Source: an uncultured delta proteobacterium
GTDB taxonomy: Bacteria; Myxococcota_A; Polyangia; Polyangiales; Houyiibacteriaceae
Direction of reading: 5' to 3'
NCBI GenBank assembly: GCA_963699755.1
Contig: CAVOVB010000003.1
Span: 731,726-795,725 of the forward strand
Length of the DNA: 64,000 bases
Both the position numbers and the translations under genes were made by a program. The stretch's first letter is position 1. Every line of letters starts with the position of its first letter. The notes below the pieces were generated by a model. That model saw only the letters and a list, made by a program, of their open reading frames with translations. It ran no database searches and was not told the origin of the DNA. This document shows positions 24,808-38,629 of this stretch, one piece after another.

Positions 24808-25413
24808 TCAGAAGAATTGCAAGGGCCTTCCAGCCTCGAAGAGGAAGCTGAAATCTCCATCGAGCACGGCCCTGCGCTCTTCTGGATCGTCGTGGTCGAC
24901 CAGCTCGACGTTTGTGAAGACAGCTACCGTTTCCTTCGTGTCGTTGTCCAACCAGGGGACGTACAGCTCCTCGAATCGGATCGTGCCGGAAACCGCGGCG
25001 TAGTAAACTGGGATGCGCGCGATCCCAGGACAGGTCGCATTGAGATAGAGTGTCATCTCGACCGGTGGCTCGAGACCGCCGAACTCGATTTCAGCGCCCA
25101 GCATCGTTTCTTTGAGCGTCTGCGGATCGCGGATGAAGATCGCGATTCCGTCGCTGAAGCTTCCGAGGTCGCTGCCGCGCTGCACGATGATGTCGATGAT
25201 CTCGACCGCGGTGCTCGGCTGCATCGCGAAGAAGTCCGGGTTTAGCGAGAACGGCTGTCCGTCGAGCCCGCAGTCGGGCGCCCAGACTTGGCCGACAGCG
25301 CTCCCCTCGCCACTGCCCTTCGCGCAGCCCGTCGTGAGCGGGCCCAAAGAGGCCGGAAGGATCAAGAGGCCGAGCGGGACCCACGCCCTGAGCTCACGCA
25401 ATGAAACCACCAC
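24808..25413 (-). CDS. Hypothetical lipoprotein
   Basis: Signal peptide ending TTGC; overlaps the flanking operon gene. Confidence 0.65.
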   Translation of the reverse strand: MVVSLRELRAWVPLGLLILPASLGPLTTGCAKGSGEGSAVGQVWAPDCGLDGQPFSLNPDFFAMQPSTAVEIIDIIVQRGSDLGSFSDGIAIFIRDPQTLKETMLGAEIEFGGLEPPVEMTLYLNATCPGIARIPVYYAAVSGTIRFEELYVPWLDNDTKETVAVFTNVELVDHDDPEERRAVLDGDFSFLFEAGRPLQFF

Positions 25414-26455
25414 CGATCACCTCGTCGCCAACGTATACCACCGCCGCTTGGCCTGGTGTAATCGCGCGCTGGGGCTCCTCGAAACGCACTTCGAAGCCGT
25501 CGGCGTTTGGCATCACGTCCGCGAGCGCGCCGCGGTGGCGATACCGAATGCGAACCTCCCCTTGGAAAGTCTCCGCCGGACGGCCAGCCACCCAGTGGGC
25601 GTCGATTGCCCTGAGCTCCCTTTCATAGAGCTGCGACTCGTCACCAACCACCACCTCGGCCGTATCGGGCACGATCCGAAGAACGTAGCGCGCGCCCCCA
25701 CCTCCGAGGCCCAGGCCTCGACGTTGCCCACGCGTGAAGTTCGCCATGCCGTCATGACGGCCGAGCACCGCTCCTTCGGAATCGACGATTGCTCCCGACT
25801 TGGCTGAGCTTCCTTCCCGTTGGAGGAAGTCGCCGACGCGCCCGTCAGGCACGAAACAAAGCTCCTGTGACTCGGGCTTGTCCGCGTTCGGAACCCCGAG
25901 GCGCCTGCCCGCTTCGCGCACCTTCGATTTGCGGAGCTCCCCGAGCGGAAAGAGCAGTCGCTCGAGGGTCGACTGGGGCAGACCGAAGAGGAAATAGCTC
26001 TGATCCTTGCCGTCATCGCGGCCTCGCAAGAGACGAAGCTGACCGTCGGCCGCCCGCAGCAGGCGCGCGTAGTGCCCGGTTGCGATGTGCGTGGCGTCGA
26101 AGCGGCGGGCGACCTCCGCAAGATAGGTCAGCTTCACCGTCCGGTTGCAGCTCACGCAGGGGATCGGCGTGCGTCCCGCCTGGTACTCGCTGACAAAGGG
26201 GTGAACGACGTGCTTGCGAAACGCGTCGCGCTCATCGAGAACGTAGTGCGGGATCCCCAGATGTTCGCAGGTGCGACGCGCGTCGTCGCGGTCTTCGGGA
26301 GCACAGCACCGGCCAACCTGTTGCGCTCCGTCGGCGTCCCACAAATGCAGCGTGACGCCTACCAGCTCGTGCCCAGCTTCATGGAGGAGGGCAGCGGCGA
26401 CCGAGGAGTCCACCCCGCCGCTCATCGCGACCAGCACTCGCTTCACTTCAGACAT
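25394..26455 (-). CDS. mnmA: tRNA 2-thiouridylase
   Basis: SGGVDS, TPIPCVSCN, ATGHY, KDQSYFL, ESQELCF and TPGQ motifs. Confidence 0.96.
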   Translation of the reverse strand: MSEVKRVLVAMSGGVDSSVAAALLHEAGHELVGVTLHLWDADGAQQVGRCCAPEDRDDARRTCEHLGIPHYVLDERDAFRKHVVHPFVSEYQAGRTPIPCVSCNRTVKLTYLAEVARRFDATHIATGHYARLLRAADGQLRLLRGRDDGKDQSYFLFGLPQSTLERLLFPLGELRKSKVREAGRRLGVPNADKPESQELCFVPDGRVGDFLQREGSSAKSGAIVDSEGAVLGRHDGMANFTRGQRRGLGLGGGGARYVLRIVPDTAEVVVGDESQLYERELRAIDAHWVAGRPAETFQGEVRIRYRHRGALADVMPNADGFEVRFEEPQRAITPGQAAVVYVGDEVIGGGFIA

Positions 26456-26630
26456 CGAAATTGCACACTGAACAAATCAACCGTGGGTTGTTACACTTAA
26501 TGGAAACCGCCGTAATTCAAAATACAACCCCATAAATTACATTTATTTCAATCATTTACATGCAAAAACGTGAATTCGGGTGAAATCAGTATCCCGGGGG
26601 CTCAACTTTGCTTGAGGTTCTTGCAGCGGT

Positions 26631-27740
26631 CTAGCTGGGTGCTCGGGTCAGAACTCGCTCAAACGCCGCAGAAGCCAAGTCGATATCTTCTTCGCTGGTT
26701 TCGATACCTAAACTGATTCGAACCGCCGAGCCAGCCCGCCACTGCTCATCCGGATACATCGCGCGAATCACCTCAGATGGCGCCAGCAAGCCCGATGAGC
26801 AAGCGGCGCCGGTTGAAAGGCAGACGCCTTCGAGGTCGAGCGCCGCGGCTAGGAGTGGCCCCTTCCAGCGGCGGAAGCTGACGTTGGATACGGTGCCGGT
26901 TCGGGGGGCACAGCCATTGACGAGGCCTCCGAGCTCGATGAGGCGCGCCTCGATCAGGTCGCGGAGCTCGGTCACCGCTGCCTGCCTCGTCAGGCGAGCC
27001 TCGGTGAGACCACAGGCTGCCCCGAAACCGACCATGCTCGAGGTGTCGAGCGTTCCGGGTCGGCGCCCCCGTTCCTGTGAGCCGCCGTCGAACAGCGGGT
27101 CGATGTCGAGGCCACGACGAACCCAGCAGGCGCCGGCCCCTGCGGGCCCGCCGATTTTCTGTGCTGCGAAGGCCGCCGCATCCGGTCGGAGCACGCTGAT
27201 GTCGATCGGCAGCTTACCGAGCGCCTGGGTCGCGTCGACGAACAAGCGTGCCTGATGTTCGCGGCAGGCTTCAGCGTATCGCTCGATCGGAAAGATGGTG
27301 CCGGTTTCGTGATTCACCCACTGAATGGCGACGAGCGTGCCTGGGCCCAGGTGCGTTGCCAGCTCTTCGGGGCTCGGCGGTCGCCCTCGGCGTACGCCCA
27401 GCCTGACGATTTCGCGACCTTCCCGCTCGAGCCGACGCACACTTTCGGCCACCGCCGGGTGCTCGACTTCGCTGGTTACGACGCGAGTGCAGCCCGTGGC
27501 TAAGCCGCGGATTCCGAGGTTGCAGGCTTCAGTGCCACCGCCGGTTAGCACGAGGTCTGCTGCCGCGGCGCCGATCGACTGGGCAACGCTCTGTCGCGCA
27601 AGCTCGAGTAGTCGACGCGAGGCTCGGCCAGCGGTGTGTGTGCTCGATGGGTTGGCCCAGGCGCCAACCGCAGCTTCTTCCATCGCCCGCCGAACCTCGT
27701 CGGGCATCGGCGTCGCCGCGTGGTGATCGAGGTAGATCAC
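26631..27740 (-). CDS. Cysteine desulfurase (IscS/NifS family)
   Basis: YLDHHAATP, EHPAV, NHETG, AQKIGGP and STGAACSSG motifs. Confidence 0.9.
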   Translation of the reverse strand: MIYLDHHAATPMPDEVRRAMEEAAVGAWANPSSTHTAGRASRRLLELARQSVAQSIGAAAADLVLTGGGTEACNLGIRGLATGCTRVVTSEVEHPAVAESVRRLEREGREIVRLGVRRGRPPSPEELATHLGPGTLVAIQWVNHETGTIFPIERYAEACREHQARLFVDATQALGKLPIDISVLRPDAAAFAAQKIGGPAGAGACWVRRGLDIDPLFDGGSQERGRRPGTLDTSSMVGFGAACGLTEARLTRQAAVTELRDLIEARLIELGGLVNGCAPRTGTVSNVSFRRWKGPLLAAALDLEGVCLSTGAACSSGLLAPSEVIRAMYPDEQWRAGSAVRISLGIETSEEDIDLASAAFERVLTRAPS

Positions 27741-34331: not shown

Positions 34332-34405
34332 TGCAATCCCGCGCCCACGAGCTCGTCATACGGGGGGTCCACCCTCGCGGCGACCGAATCTCTCTATGAT
34401 CATTC

Positions 34406-34436
34406 TTGACAATACCGATGTGGGAACACATAGATC
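34406..34436 (+). promoter_or_regulatory. Putative sigma70 promoter of the cys operon
   Basis: Perfect TTGACA at 34406; only a weak -10 downstream. Confidence 0.45.
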
Positions 34437-34444
34437 ACCGTCCG

Positions 34445-34897
34445 GTGAAACTCTCGAATAAGGGCCGATATGGCGTCCGAGCCATTTTCGACATCGCTTT
34501 TCACAGCGGTGGCAGCGCCACGCAGATCAAAGACATCTCGCGTCGGCAGGCCATCCCGCCGCGGTTCCTCGAGCAAATTTTTCAGGACCTCAAGCGAGCC
34601 GGGTTGGTGACGTCCAAGCGTGGGCCCCGAGGCGGTTACGCTCTATCGATGACCGCGGACGATATACGGCTCGGTGACATCGTGCGAGCCCTCGAAGGAC
34701 CCGTCGTGCTGGCGGGCCACGACGGGAATGGCGATGCTGACGAAACCAGCCGCGTCGTGACTGAAACCGTCTTCTCAGAGCTTTCTGAAAGCATCGAGGC
34801 GTGCTTCGACGCGGTCACGATCCAAGATCTATGTGATCGAGGCGATTCGCACGGCATTCGACGCGCCCCGCCTCGACGTTACGTGTATTCAATCTGA
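34445..34897 (+). CDS. Rrf2-family regulator, CymR-like
   Basis: KGRYGVRA, FLEQIF and RGPRGGY motifs; lacks the IscR Fe-S cysteine triad; C-terminus YVYSI. Confidence 0.88.
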   Translation: MKLSNKGRYGVRAIFDIAFHSGGSATQIKDISRRQAIPPRFLEQIFQDLKRAGLVTSKRGPRGGYALSMTADDIRLGDIVRALEGPVVLAGHDGNGDADETSRVVTETVFSELSESIEACFDAVTIQDLCDRGDSHGIRRAPPRRYVYSI

Positions 34898-35823
34898 TGT
34901 CCCCAGTGGTTGTCGATAGCGTGCTCGATTTGGTGGGTGAAACTCCGGTAGTGCGTTTGCGCAATCTCTCCCCCGAAGGCGGCGCGACGATTTGGGGCAA
35001 GTGCGAGCACCTCAATCCTGGTGGTTCGGTCAAAGATCGGATCTGCCTCGCGATGATCGAAGCAGCCGAAGCGGAGGGCCGATTGAAGCCGGGCGACACT
35101 ATTGTCGAGCCTACGAGTGGCAACACCGGCATCGGCCTGGCGCTGGTCTGCGCGCGTAAGGGCTACAAGCTCGTGCTCACAATGCCTGCGAGCATGTCGC
35201 TCGAGCGGCGTGCCCTGCTCGAGGCATACGGAGTAGAAATCGTGCTGACCGAGCCCGATCGGGTGATGGAAGGAGCGATGGAAGCAGCGCGCCGCATCGT
35301 CGAAGAGCGGGGCGCGTTCATGCCCGAGCAGTTTTCGAATCCGGCCAATCCAGGTGTGCACCGTCGCACGACCGCGCCAGAGCTGCTGCGGGCGTTCGAA
35401 GCACAAAGCATCGACGCCTTCGTGGCTGCGGTTGGCACGGGAGGAACCGTGAGTGGCGTCGGCGAGGCACTGAAGGCGCGCAATCCCGAGACCCGCGTAT
35501 TCGCGGTGGAACCAGCCGCGAGCCCCGTGCTGATCGGTGGTCCTCCGGGGCCGACCAAAATCCAAGGGCTCAACGCAGGCTTCATTCCAGACAACTACCA
35601 TGGCGATGTCGTCGACGAGGTCATCGGCGTGAGCGATCAGGACGCCTGGGAGACCAAGCTCGCGCTCGCCAAGCGAGAGGGTCTGCTTCTCGGCATCAGT
35701 GCGGGCGCAAACGTTTGGGCTGCGATCGAAGTCGCCAAGCAACTCGGGCCGGACAAAACGGTCGCGACCATTCTCTGCGACACCGGCGAGCGCTACTTCA
35801 GCTTGGGGGAGTACTTCAAGTGA
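34897..35823 (+). CDS. cysK: Cysteine synthase A
   Basis: NPGGSVKDRI, EPTSGNTGIG, GTGGT, KIQG and CDTGERY motifs. Confidence 0.93.
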   Translation: MSPVVVDSVLDLVGETPVVRLRNLSPEGGATIWGKCEHLNPGGSVKDRICLAMIEAAEAEGRLKPGDTIVEPTSGNTGIGLALVCARKGYKLVLTMPASMSLERRALLEAYGVEIVLTEPDRVMEGAMEAARRIVEERGAFMPEQFSNPANPGVHRRTTAPELLRAFEAQSIDAFVAAVGTGGTVSGVGEALKARNPETRVFAVEPAASPVLIGGPPGPTKIQGLNAGFIPDNYHGDVVDEVIGVSDQDAWETKLALAKREGLLLGISAGANVWAAIEVAKQLGPDKTVATILCDTGERYFSLGEYFK

Positions 35824-36527
35824 AAGACGCGCATCGCGTTCTCGTCGTCGGAGCAGGTGGCCTCGGCTCTCCGGTGCTTCGCTTGCTCGCGCGGAGCGGC
35901 ATCGCGCACATCACGGTCATCGATGACGACCGCGTGGAGGAAAGCAATCTTCACCGGCAGACGCTCTACCAAAGCGACGACGTCGGGCGCTCGAAGATCG
36001 AGCGCGCAGTCGAAGTGCTTCGCGAGATTTCGCCAAGGCTTTCGGTGCACGCGATCGAAGGCCGCTTCGTACCGGAGAGGGCCATGGAGCTCTTGAAAGA
36101 GCACAGCCTCGTGGTCGAAGGCGCGGACAACCTCGCGACCAAGTTTCTCGTTGCCGATGCCGCGCACCTCTGCGCGGTCCCTGCAGTGCAGGCGGGCGCA
36201 GTTCGTTGGGCCGGCTGGGCGTTCTGCGGACTGCCCGATTCGGCTTGCCTCCGCTGCCTCTTCGAGGACATCCCCCCGGACCGACTCGAGACCTGCGCCG
36301 AAGCGGGCGTGCTTGGCCCGGTCGTTGGTGTCCTCGGCGCTCTCGAGGCGGCTCTAGTATTTCGCCTGCTCCAGGGGGAACGTCCGGGAGGCCAGCTTTG
36401 GCACTATGATGCGCTCAAAGGCGCCCTTCGAAAGACCTTCGTGCGCCGACGCGGGGACTGCCCCCTGTGCAAAGGGGAGATTCAGGACCTACGCACGGAG
36501 CGGTACATGGCAGTTTGCGCTGCCTGA
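35820..36527 (+). CDS. ThiF/MoeB E1-like adenylyltransferase lacking the N-terminal RYxRQ segment
   Basis: GAGGLG, SNLHRQ, CLRC, TCAEAGVLG and CPLC; GTG start overlaps the cysK stop. Confidence 0.9.
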   Translation: MKDAHRVLVVGAGGLGSPVLRLLARSGIAHITVIDDDRVEESNLHRQTLYQSDDVGRSKIERAVEVLREISPRLSVHAIEGRFVPERAMELLKEHSLVVEGADNLATKFLVADAAHLCAVPAVQAGAVRWAGWAFCGLPDSACLRCLFEDIPPDRLETCAEAGVLGPVVGVLGALEAALVFRLLQGERPGGQLWHYDALKGALRKTFVRRRGDCPLCKGEIQDLRTERYMAVCAA

Positions 36528-36566
36528 TTCATTCTCCCATTTGTTGGGACTCAGAAAGGAACGAAA

Positions 36567-36848
36567 ATGGCTGTTACGGTACGCATTCCAACCCCACTCC
36601 GGACCTTGACCGGCGGAGCAGACGAAGTCTCCGTGGACGGTGGCACGGTGTCCGAGGTGATCGAAAGCCTCGAGGCCAACCACCCGGGCATGAAAGACCG
36701 CCTCTGCGACGAGAAGGGCGTGCGCCGCTTCGTGAACATCTACGCGAACGACGAGGATATTCGCTTCCTCGACAATCTCGAGACCACGCTCAAGGAGGGC
36801 GACACCCTGAGCATCGTTCCGGCTATCGCGGGCGGGGCCTTGCGTTGA
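36567..36848 (+). CDS. MoaD/ThiS/CysO-like ubiquitin-fold sulfur carrier, precursor ending GG-ALR
   Basis: VRIPTPLR...RRFVNIYANDEDIRFL...IVPAIAGGALR. Confidence 0.92.
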   Translation: MAVTVRIPTPLRTLTGGADEVSVDGGTVSEVIESLEANHPGMKDRLCDEKGVRRFVNIYANDEDIRFLDNLETTLKEGDTLSIVPAIAGGALR

Positions 36849-37210
36849 GCCTCGACGCCGCAGCACGGCGTCGGTACGCGCGTCAGCTTCTTCTCGGTGA
36901 AATCGGGGAGATAGGCCAGGAGCTTCTGCTCGCTGCCCGATTTCGCTGCAGCGCGGACGGCGATCCGTACGCATACGCTGTGGCCGCGGAGTATCTCGAA
37001 CGGGCGGGCTGCTCCGCGGACGAGGATGGCGCCGTCTTGCCGGTCCCGACTCCGGCCGAAGTCATGCGCTTTGCGGGGTCCCCCGCCCTCGCGAGGCCCG
37101 CCGCGGCGATCATGGGTGCATTCACTGCGGTCGAGTACCTGAAGGAGGTTGTCGGCCTCGCGGCCGCGAGCGAGCTTTCCGGCGAGCTGAGATTGAGTAG
37201 CGAGGATTGA
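36845..37210 (+). CDS. Truncated pseudo-E1 (ThiF N-terminal segment plus C-terminal helix)
   Basis: RRYARQLLLGEIGEIGQELL and AAAIMGAFTAVEYLK; no GxGxxG and no Zn motif; overlaps both neighbours. Confidence 0.7.
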   Translation: MSLDAAARRRYARQLLLGEIGEIGQELLLAARFRCSADGDPYAYAVAAEYLERAGCSADEDGAVLPVPTPAEVMRFAGSPALARPAAAIMGAFTAVEYLKEVVGLAAASELSGELRLSSED

Positions 37211-38133
37211 TGCGCTTTCGCAAGATAGAGTCGATCGTCGAGGCGGTCGGGAACACCCCGATGGTGCGCTTGCGTTCGCTCGAAAAGGACGCGCCCGGGA
37301 CCAAGATCTATCTCAAGCTCGAGTACGCGAATCCCGGAGGCTCGGTGAAGGACCGCCCTGCCCGCCAGATGATGCTGGATGCAATCGAAGACGGTCGGCT
37401 TCGCAGCGACAAGATTCTGATCGACGCGACCAGCGGCAACACCGGTGTCGCATACAGCTTGCTTGGCGCCGCGATGGGCTACCGCGTTCAGCTCGTGATG
37501 CCGTCCAACGTCTCGCAGGCGCGCAAGGACATCAGCATGGCGTTCGGCACCGAGATCATTTACAGCGACCCGATGGAAGGCTCCGACGGTGCGATCCGAA
37601 AGGTGCGCCGGATGGTAGCCGAGGATCCAGATCGCTACTTCTACCCCGACCAGTACTCGAATCCGTCAAATCCAAAGGCGCACTACCTCGGCACCGGAGA
37701 GGAGATCATCGAGCAGGTCGGCGATGAGCTCACGCACTTCGTGGCTGGGATCGGAACCAGCGGAACCATCATGGGAACGACGCGGCGACTTCATGAGTAC
37801 AGTCGCAGGATCCAATGCATCGCGGTCGAGCCGGCCGAAGCGCTGCACGGTCTCGAAGGCCTCAAGCACATGGCGAGCTCGCTCGTCCCAGAGATTTACG
37901 ACCCGACGGTTCCTGATGAGATTCTGCCCATCGGCACCGATGCGGGCTGGGACATGTCCGACCGCCTGGCGGCCGAAGAGGGCCTGCACGTCGGGCATTC
38001 GACGGGCGCGAACGTAGCAGCGGCGATCCAAGTGGCCAAGCGCGCTGACGCGAGCTGTGTCCTCGCGATCGCCTGCGACCGGGGCGACCGGTACTTCGCG
38101 CCGATGAAATGGGAGAAGCACTATGAGTGGTGA
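37210..38133 (+). CDS. cysM: Second PLP-dependent cysteine synthase (CysM-like)
   Basis: NPGGSVKDRPA, DATSGNTG, GTSGT, HGLEGLK and CDRGDRY motifs. Confidence 0.85.
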   Translation: MRFRKIESIVEAVGNTPMVRLRSLEKDAPGTKIYLKLEYANPGGSVKDRPARQMMLDAIEDGRLRSDKILIDATSGNTGVAYSLLGAAMGYRVQLVMPSNVSQARKDISMAFGTEIIYSDPMEGSDGAIRKVRRMVAEDPDRYFYPDQYSNPSNPKAHYLGTGEEIIEQVGDELTHFVAGIGTSGTIMGTTRRLHEYSRRIQCIAVEPAEALHGLEGLKHMASSLVPEIYDPTVPDEILPIGTDAGWDMSDRLAAEEGLHVGHSTGANVAAAIQVAKRADASCVLAIACDRGDRYFAPMKWEKHYEW

Positions 38134-38629
38134 GCTGTTTCCGTGGATCTCCGGAGACCTCGAAATCGACAAATCGGTCATGGACGCAATCGAGCAACAC
38201 GCGCTCGAATGCTATCCGAGCGAGAGTTGTGGGTTCGTCTTCGGACCGGCCGAGCAACCTGCCCTTCTCGACGCGCTTCAGCGCGAAGAAAACGAAGCTG
38301 ACAAGTACCATCGGCTCGATCCAGTCACGTTTCCGCGCACCTCGAATACCTATTTCAAGATCAACGAGCTACGCGCGGCCCGCACCTTCGAGCAGGGGCA
38401 ACGCGACGGCCGGCCGGTAAAGGTCATCTACCACTCGCACTGCGACGCGGGTGCGTACTTCTCAGACGAAGATGCGGCGACCTTTGCCAACGGAGGCCAG
38501 CTGATGTGGCCGTGCGCCTACATCGTCGTGAGCATCATGCACGGTGAGGTCGCCGAGCGGCGCCTCTGGGTGCACGAGCCGGGGACAAACGGTTTCCGAG
38601 AATCGACCCTGGCCATTCGAGAGCCCTGA
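38123..38629 (+). CDS. JAB/MPN+ metalloprotease (Mec-like)
   Basis: YPSESCG...YHSHCDAGAYFSDED. Confidence 0.9.
   Translation: MSGELFPWISGDLEIDKSVMDAIEQHALECYPSESCGFVFGPAEQPALLDALQREENEADKYHRLDPVTFPRTSNTYFKINELRAARTFEQGQRDGRPVKVIYHSHCDAGAYFSDEDAATFANGGQLMWPCAYIVVSIMHGEVAERRLWVHEPGTNGFRESTLAIREP

Follow-up and report, generated by a model that had tools for sequence, protein, structure and literature searches.

A catalytic E1 without an arginine-finger helix and a relic E1-like partner in a putative sulfur-carrier cysteine operon of Myxococcota

Introduction

The 64,000-nucleotide stretch of contig CAVOVB010000003.1 analyzed here (positions 731,726 to 795,725; hereafter the window), from an uncultured delta proteobacterium of the Myxococcota, encodes at positions 34445-38629 seven genes of a sulfur-relay operon centered on a ubiquitin-like protein (Ubl). 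Its distinguishing feature is the E1 that would activate this carrier: the catalytic E1 lacks the N-terminal arginine-finger helix, a separate 121-amino-acid (aa) pseudo-E1 contains precisely the missing segment, and the two genes mostly travel together across related genomes; further, an upstream box is common to the operon and to a rhodanese-E1 fusion gene elsewhere on the contig. The explanation that we favor, at a probability of roughly 0.6, is that of a regulated Myxococcota cysteine operon that operates via a thiocarboxylated carrier and a two-gene heterodimeric E1. The pathway is of a known kind; what is unusual and new is the apparent splitting of the E1 into a truncated enzyme and a relic partner.

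Results

Organization of the operon

The features of the locus, all on the forward (+) strand, are:

34402..34421, +, conserved upstream box with TTGACA at 34406-34411; putative promoter and Rrf2 operator
34445..34897, +, Rrf2 regulator of CymR type with the tail YVYSI (PF02082)
34897..35823, +, CysK, cysteine synthase A (TIGR01139); probable enzyme and co-sensor
35820..36527, +, catalytic E1 of ThiF/MoeB type without N-terminal arginine-finger helix (PF00899 positions 21-237)
36567..36848, +, CysO-like sulfur carrier (Ubl) ending in GG-ALR (PF02597)
36845..37210, +, minimal pseudo-E1 of 121 aa with arginine-finger helix and dimer helices (family profile, predicted fold)
37210..38133, +, CysM-like synthase for a putative bulky sulfur donor (best family TIGR01138, below cut-off)
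38123..38629, +, JAB/Mec-type metallopeptidase with intact metal motif E34, H104-S-H106, D117 (PF14464)

This gene set, its order and the overlapping or near-abutting junctions had been given in a preliminary description of the DNA and are borne out by the open reading frame coordinates, Pfam matches and junction lengths: five of the six junctions overlap (by 1, 4, 4, 1 and 11 nucleotides (nt)) and a 39-nt gap separates the E1 and Ubl genes. In gene order the Pfam matches are Rrf2, PALP, ThiF, ThiS, none for the pseudo-E1, PALP and Prok-JAB; the G+C fraction at third codon positions is 0.66-0.80 for the seven genes. The survey of synteny proposed in the same description recovers this gene order across Polyangiales relatives, and the nearest Ubl loci, found in genomes of Myxococcota that carry the labels Myxococcales, Polyangiales or Deltaproteobacteria, are identical in order. 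The host genome (5.35 Mb) is 100% complete and 9% contaminated, with an attendant binning risk for single genes located elsewhere in it.

Two complementary parts of one E1 domain

The catalytic E1, of 235 aa, consists of a ThiF domain alone. Its match to the ThiF model spans 21-237 of 238 positions; the first ~20 positions, and with them the N-terminal arginine-finger helix, are absent from its own chain. Its start codon and the stop codon of cysK overlap, so that the chain opens at the first beta strand, which is also the first element (residues 6-10) of a predicted model (predicted local distance difference test score (pLDDT) 94; template-modelling score 0.82-0.84 to ThiF/MoeB). The P-loop, the NLxRQ motif, and the Lys, Asp and zinc cysteines of MoeB/ThiF type are invariant or nearly so: G11, G13, D35, N43, R46, Q47, K59, D103, C143, C146 and C214 are present in 45/45 aligned rows, and the crossover cysteine C159 in 43/45. 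The operon E1 has neither a Cys domain nor an inserted Cys domain, and no E2-like gene is found among the seven. In MoeB and ThiF the finger arginine (Arg14 and Arg11, respectively) is lent to the neighboring subunit (PMC13139853).

The pseudo-E1 covers the part that this enzyme is missing: on PRK08762 it matches positions 120-156, while the E1 matches 148-384. The preliminary description had rightly named the gene a pseudo-E1 but had missed this complementarity, which is the unusual feature of the locus. Its family forms 211 clusters at 50% identity, and its Atlas entry is labelled hypothetical and is mostly from Myxococcota. Across an alignment of 136 of the 150 listed members the mean column identity is 24%; Arg13 is present in 134/136 (and in 45/45 rows of our locus set), Gln25 and Gly55 in 136/136, and the GxxGQ, YL..G and G...A motifs are retained. 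The P-loop and NLxRQ motifs are each found in 0/136, and the operon's pseudo-E1 has no zinc site. A profile of the family matches only MoeB, ThiF and Uba4 (MoeB 1jw9 at E 2e-8), in two separated pieces, namely the N-terminal 60-90 residues and a late helix near MoeB 199-220, which we take to be a dimer-face helix.

The predicted model of the pseudo-E1 (pLDDT 96.5) aligns with Uba4 (Z 8.9, root-mean-square deviation (rmsd) 2.6, 114 residues aligned), MoeB (Z 8.6, rmsd 2.9, 116 aligned) and the NAE1 chain 1yov_A (Z 7.7, rmsd 2.7, 108 aligned), and its top six structural matches are all E1-like. A Foldseek search with it returned nothing at E<=0.001; the top 14 rows are still ThiF, MoeB and Uba4. 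Single-sequence matches to alpha-Rep proteins in the PDB were rejected as short-motif coincidence. Across the locus set, the lengths of the partner form a series from 260 down to 91 aa, and 5/45 still hold a CxxC; hence, the partner reads as a duplicate that decayed stepwise.

Co-occurrence of the truncated E1 and its partner

In a first set of loci, many of which were recovered via the partner itself, and which omits five rows without a visible N-terminal end and known duplicates, a truncated E1 with the partner occurs 46 times, a truncated E1 alone not once and a full-length E1 with the partner not once, while a full-length E1 alone occurs in 20 loci (23 genes). Among 80 loci recovered by the Ubl only, 19 combine the truncated E1 with the partner and nine have a full-length E1 alone. 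An E1-anchored check of 40 further genomes, 26 seemingly with and 14 seemingly without a partner, yielded 21 paired loci and five truncated E1s without a partner, then four further pairs; one locus at a contig end could not be classed, and nine of the 14 seemingly partner-less genomes contain only full-length or unrelated E1-like matches. Overall, ~71 paired loci stand against five unpaired ones, with a few genomes possibly counted twice. A tally of 347/401 was discarded as a count of partners, because ordinary full-length E1s are also picked up by the profile, through their N-terminus. In two loci (L012 and L014, from assemblies of unknown completeness) the rrf2-cysK-ubl-cysM-jab array is kept, the truncated E1 and the partner are both gone, and the only E1 is full-length, which suggests that a full-length E1 is able to charge the carrier.

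Because the truncated E1 and the partner are complementary halves of one domain and co-occur, it is probable, judging from sequences and predicted models, that the two bind as a heterodimer.

A probable sulfur-carrier route to cysteine

The two best solved relatives of the Ubl are 4n6e_B (E 4e-28) and the mycobacterial CysO (3dwg_C; E 2e-23 over residues 1-90). Elsewhere, the genome encodes a MoaD-MoaE pair and, next to a thiG-like gene, a dedicated ThiS. A role of the Ubl in molybdenum cofactor or thiamine synthesis, which the preliminary description had named among the outcomes that would refute its proposal, was rejected on these grounds; both lines of evidence support the CysO-CysM-Mec-like relay that it proposed. 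The Ubl ends in GG-ALR rather than GG, and the tail after the GG is variable among relatives; hence, the JAB protein would also be needed to mature the carrier by removing this tail, much as Mec is reported to mature the MetO carrier (GapMind preprint). All JAB rows listed have the HSH motif.

The CysM-like synthase has TIGR01138 cysM as its best family (327 against a cut-off of 394), and its homologues are named only "cysteine synthase B/family". Its loop GLK219HM takes the place of the enteric CysM loop GIRRW in the alignment. The genome further encodes two CysD, CysH, a nitrite/sulfite reductase, a third cysteine synthase, and a serine-acetyltransferase-like gene that falls below its family cut-off. 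Other clients for the carrier are not apparent in this genome: it has no close ThrC-like gene (31% only), no LarE-like gene and no radical SAM client like those of the relatives; TusA also has no match. Therefore, cysteine is the only visible product here, and we consider it likely to be the product of the operon's carrier route. A second CysO-like gene in the genome (L086:1465-1776; G000:C4:22552-22818) is broken by an in-frame TAG.

Regulation

To our knowledge, CymR-CysK complexes have been described in Firmicutes only. The Rrf2 protein of the operon falls below the CymR and IscR cut-offs (90 bits against 195 for the CymR hidden Markov model NF047409). It resembles the CymR-CysK system in having an aromatic-rich, Ile-ended tail and a cysK gene beside it, and differs in its provenance from Myxococcota and its sub-threshold score. 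Ile is the C-terminal residue in 33/36 Rrf2 rows, the exceptions being one read-through, one frameshifted piece and one Tyr-ended protein; the C-terminal residue of the genome's serine-acetyltransferase-like protein is not Ile. CysK itself scores 396 bits with TIGR01139 (cut-off 351) and has the small-residue loop QGLNAG. In Staphylococcus aureus the CymR tail YMFYI binds the CysK active site with nanomolar affinity, and CysM is reported as incapable of such complexes (bioRxiv 10.1101/2024.09.19.614015). Since the Ile-ended Rrf2 tail resembles this CysK-binding tail, CysK is probably both an enzyme and a co-sensor, and the formation of a CymR-type Rrf2-CysK complex in this operon appears likely from the sequences. 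Thus, the co-encoded free-sulfide CysK of the preliminary description is probably more than a parallel route, being also the partner of the regulator.

The box at 34402-34421 precedes rrf2 both in the window and in 20 relatives, and a matrix derived from 18 relatives has it as its top match in the genome. A strict promoter scan found no site.

Candidate sources of the sulfur

The preliminary description stated that no rhodanese domain is present, which holds for the operon (zero Pfam matches among its seven proteins) but not for the genome: a 391-aa rhodanese-E1 fusion is encoded ~100 kb away on the window's own contig (L001:1099-2274; G000:C3, about 663519-664694). Apart from it and the operon E1, the genome has no ThiF gene. 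A copy of the upstream box lies 82 nt before its start, ranking sixth of 20 genome matches, of which some that rank higher resemble chance matches in coding sequence. The box precedes the rhodanese-E1 gene in 17/21 genomes at a shuffle p<=0.01; it stands at the same distance in 12/13 relatives of the same genus and is absent in three of four more distant ones. The fusion gene is thus likely to belong to the regulon of the operon and, because of the box common to both, is our best candidate for the sulfur donor, if a tentative one at somewhat less than even odds. An adenylated carrier that reacts with sulfide directly reportedly has a precedent in Wolinella.

The desulfurase at 26631, which had been put forward as one candidate for the donor, was rejected in this role: it lies 6.7 kb off on the opposite strand, immediately ahead of mnmA, and has no upstream-box copy scoring >15. 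It is further disfavored because a cysteine pathway fed with sulfur drawn from cysteine would bring no net gain. Desulfurases and MnmA constitute an established tRNA thiolation pathway, and this NifS/IscS-like gene (26631-27740), directly upstream of mnmA (together 25394-27740 of the window, -), is probably one half of a tRNA 2-thiolation pair. In 62 operon loci (flanks of up to ~6 kb, searched with no positive control) neither a desulfurase nor MnmA nor a rhodanese was found.

Discussion

Proposed mechanism

We envisage the following course of events. JAB would trim the ALR tail to expose the GG of the carrier, which the E1 would then adenylate. A persulfide donor, for which the rhodanese-E1 fusion on the same contig is the best candidate, or sulfide would convert the adenylate to the carrier thiocarboxylate (carrier-COSH). 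The CysM-like enzyme would transfer the sulfur of the carrier-COSH to an activated serine, and JAB would finally release cysteine from the carrier. The E1 itself would be a two-gene heterodimer, in which the 235-aa subunit brings the ATP site, the zinc site and the crossover cysteine, and the 121-aa relic brings the dimer helices and Arg13 in trans, with one active site per pair. CysK would combine O-acetylserine with sulfide to give cysteine and would probably also act as the sensor of repression, through its binding of the Rrf2 tail that ends in Ile.

Variants in related loci

Related loci depart from this plan in several ways. In four (L125:1140-2027, L128:5303-6208, L138:4845-5786, L142:1062-1985) the truncated E1 is fused to a TusA-like domain that has a CP motif, and in one (L136:4833-5894) to the Ubl. 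In L125, L127, L128, L130, L136 and L138 a radical SAM gene comes after an E1-partner-JAB array that lacks cysteine synthases; several of these loci also have a DASS-family transporter and a ferredoxin. A LarE-like sulfur transferase, possibly a second client of the thiocarboxylated carrier, comes just after JAB in L012:7740-8543, L146:6996-7850 and L251-L254. In 38 loci (L027:4689-5981, L040, L065, L129 and others) a ThrC-like gene sits beside the Ubl, and L129 additionally has a NIL-domain gene and ATP sulfurylase; ThrC-like genes can be MetM (GapMind preprint), and these neighbors are possibly homocysteine synthases of that type. A gene for a bacterial EndoU nuclease domain lies between the partner and JAB in one locus (L134:3220-4395).

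The full-length E1s show variations of their own. Three loci (L022, L070, L071) have two full-length E1 genes in one cysteine-synthase locus and possibly resemble the state before the division of labor. In L266-L272 (genomes G407 and G409) full-length E1s have an in-frame TGA at the position of the crossover cysteine (rows L269 and L272), a possible selenocysteine. The full-length E1 of L207 (G095) has the N-terminal helix, but both arginines of the finger motif are replaced by Gln.

Counter-evidence and rival explanations

Several observations weigh against the explanation that we favor. In five genomes (G230, G255, G340, G270, G210) the motifs of the truncated E1 are intact, yet a partner is missing from the operon and is not found elsewhere in the genome at E<=0.01; hence, the partner is not universally required. 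A single branch separates the truncated E1s (43 rows) from the other E1s (Shimodaira-Hasegawa-like approximate likelihood ratio support 99 in a quick tree), so their co-occurrence with the partner is best counted as one origin with later losses and not as many independent repeats. The Z-scores of 8-9 for the pseudo-E1 are near the background that the tool states for unrelated models. The arginine finger is reported to be non-essential in MoeB and ThiF and is absent in TcdA; likewise, in yeast the R59A change in Tcd1 has little effect, and Tcd1 is needed for the stability of Tcd2 (PMC13139853). Since the finger is reportedly dispensable in these systems and Tcd1 stabilizes its mate, the partner may, by analogy, serve mainly as a dimer scaffold rather than as a provider of the finger. 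With respect to the product, the synthase has Lys219 in its donor loop in place of Arg210 of enteric CysM and is nearer to the enteric enzyme (E 4e-66) than to 3dwg (E 3e-55), which by E-value also ranks below several CysK; further, the E1-partner-JAB module is also found without cysteine synthases, near radical SAM or LarE-like genes or with no obvious clients. With respect to regulation, the box matrix gives 20 matches in the real genome against 0-14 in column-shuffled controls, and 13 of the 20 relatives tested for the box belong to one genus.

Some of these observations could be accommodated if the truncated E1 were a self-sufficient homodimer, with the pseudo-E1 acting as a modulator or inhibitor at the dimer face or pairing with the rhodanese-E1 instead. 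The five genomes without the partner, the reported dispensability of the finger, the fact that TcdA works without one (PMC13139853) and the presence of a full-length E1 in 14/14 of the genomes chosen as seemingly partner-less speak for this view. Yet an inhibitor would not need Arg13, which is kept in 134/136 homologues despite the low column identity; the partner stands beside a full-length E1 in 0/20 loci; and both genes have been lost jointly in L012 and L014. On balance we deem this unlikely. Less likely still is that the second synthase is an ordinary thiosulfate- or sulfide-using CysM, the carrier serving homocysteine synthesis, a LarE-like enzyme or a radical SAM enzyme. The best matches of the synthase are indeed enteric CysM, and in relatives the carrier is found beside ThrC-like (38 loci), LarE-like (8) and radical SAM (11) genes; however, this genome lacks such clients, the Ubl is CysO-like, and Ubl, CysM and JAB remain adjacent even where both E1 genes are lost.

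Conjugation of the Ubl to proteins in the manner of SAMP, Urm1 or TtuB, with JAB as a deconjugase, could coexist with the cysteine route, and several features are reminiscent of it: the crossover cysteine is kept in 43/45 E1s, conjugating systems are built around an asymmetric E1, no metabolic client is visible at L126, L134 and L143, and the Ubl scores 59.9 with the SAMP1 model, against a cut-off of 60. We regard it as highly improbable here, given that there is no E2-like gene among the seven and no inserted Cys domain in the E1, that the context is dominated by sulfur metabolism, and that the TusA-E1 fusions in four loci point to sulfur transfer. Set against these alternatives, the heterodimeric E1 of a carrier-based cysteine operon remains our preferred explanation.

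Relationship to known systems

The CysO-CysM-Mec-MoeZR chemistry of cysteine formation is known from mycobacteria (PMC3227635), and our operon resembles it (PDB 3dwg) in combining a CysO-like carrier, a CysM-like synthase, JAB and an E1 in one pathway; it differs in the C-terminal extension of the carrier, the inclusion of CysK and a CymR-type regulator, and the donor-loop Lys, and its own E1 is not the E1-rhodanese fusion that charges the carrier in the CysO route. Neighborhood class 4c (Iyer et al. 2006, PMC1779556) already groups Ubl, E1, JAB and cysteine synthase genes in operons, with the E1 fused to a rhodanese, whereas the E1 here lacks the rhodanese, is shortened at its N-terminus and is accompanied by a relic partner on a separate gene.

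Among E1 enzymes, Escherichia coli MoeB-MoaD and ThiF-ThiS (1jw9, 1zud, 1zfn) share the fold, the ATP-site residues, the zinc cysteines and the crossover cysteine with the operon's enzyme; they are symmetric and have two sites, each subunit lending its own Arg14 or Arg11, whereas here the finger and the site are on separate genes. The partner parallels the eukaryotic heterodimers NAE1-UBA3 and SAE1-UBA2 (PMC12355090), in which active and inactive adenylation subunits are likewise separate genes: it is an inactive E1-fold subunit that carries the finger arginine and no ATP site. Unlike those, the operon E1 is without Cys half-domains, a ubiquitin-fold domain and an E2, the inactive subunit is of ~120 aa and the likely output is a thiocarboxylate. 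An inactive copy that gives an arginine in trans to an active one is also reported for BilD, where Arg9 comes from the inactive one of two domains in the same chain (PMC10557695), and for yeast Tcd1, which supplies Arg59 to Tcd2 (PMC13139853); in contrast to our pair, BilD is one chain that functions in phage-defence conjugation, and Tcd1-Tcd2 are full-length tRNA-modifying paralogues.

As of 2023, the known bacterial E1-like proteins were described as homodimers, and BilD as a single-chain pseudo-dimer (PMC10557695). In the parts available, reviews place heterodimeric E1s only in eukaryotes (PMC12355090, PMC11354881) and PMC12596934 never uses the word; the literature searched, within which subscription papers and supplements did not fall, contains no bacterial two-gene E1. 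We assume an origin independent of the eukaryotic heterodimers. We give even odds to the strongest form of our proposal: that this is a true two-gene heterodimeric E1, which arose by duplication and division of labor independently of eukaryotes, and in which the inactive subunit, shrunk via living intermediates (~260 to 90 aa) to a minimum, would be required for activity in this lineage.

Biological implications

If our explanation holds, these operons would offer a tractable bacterial model for the passage from symmetric MoeB-type dimers to the active/inactive pairs of the SUMO, NEDD8 and ubiquitin E1s. The purpose of the trans arginine would become testable, this residue being reportedly non-essential in MoeB and ThiF yet among the best-kept of the reduced partner. 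A family without annotation so far, with at least 211 clusters, would also gain a role. Finally, it suggests that both CymR-CysK control and a carrier-based route to cysteine are present in Myxococcota.

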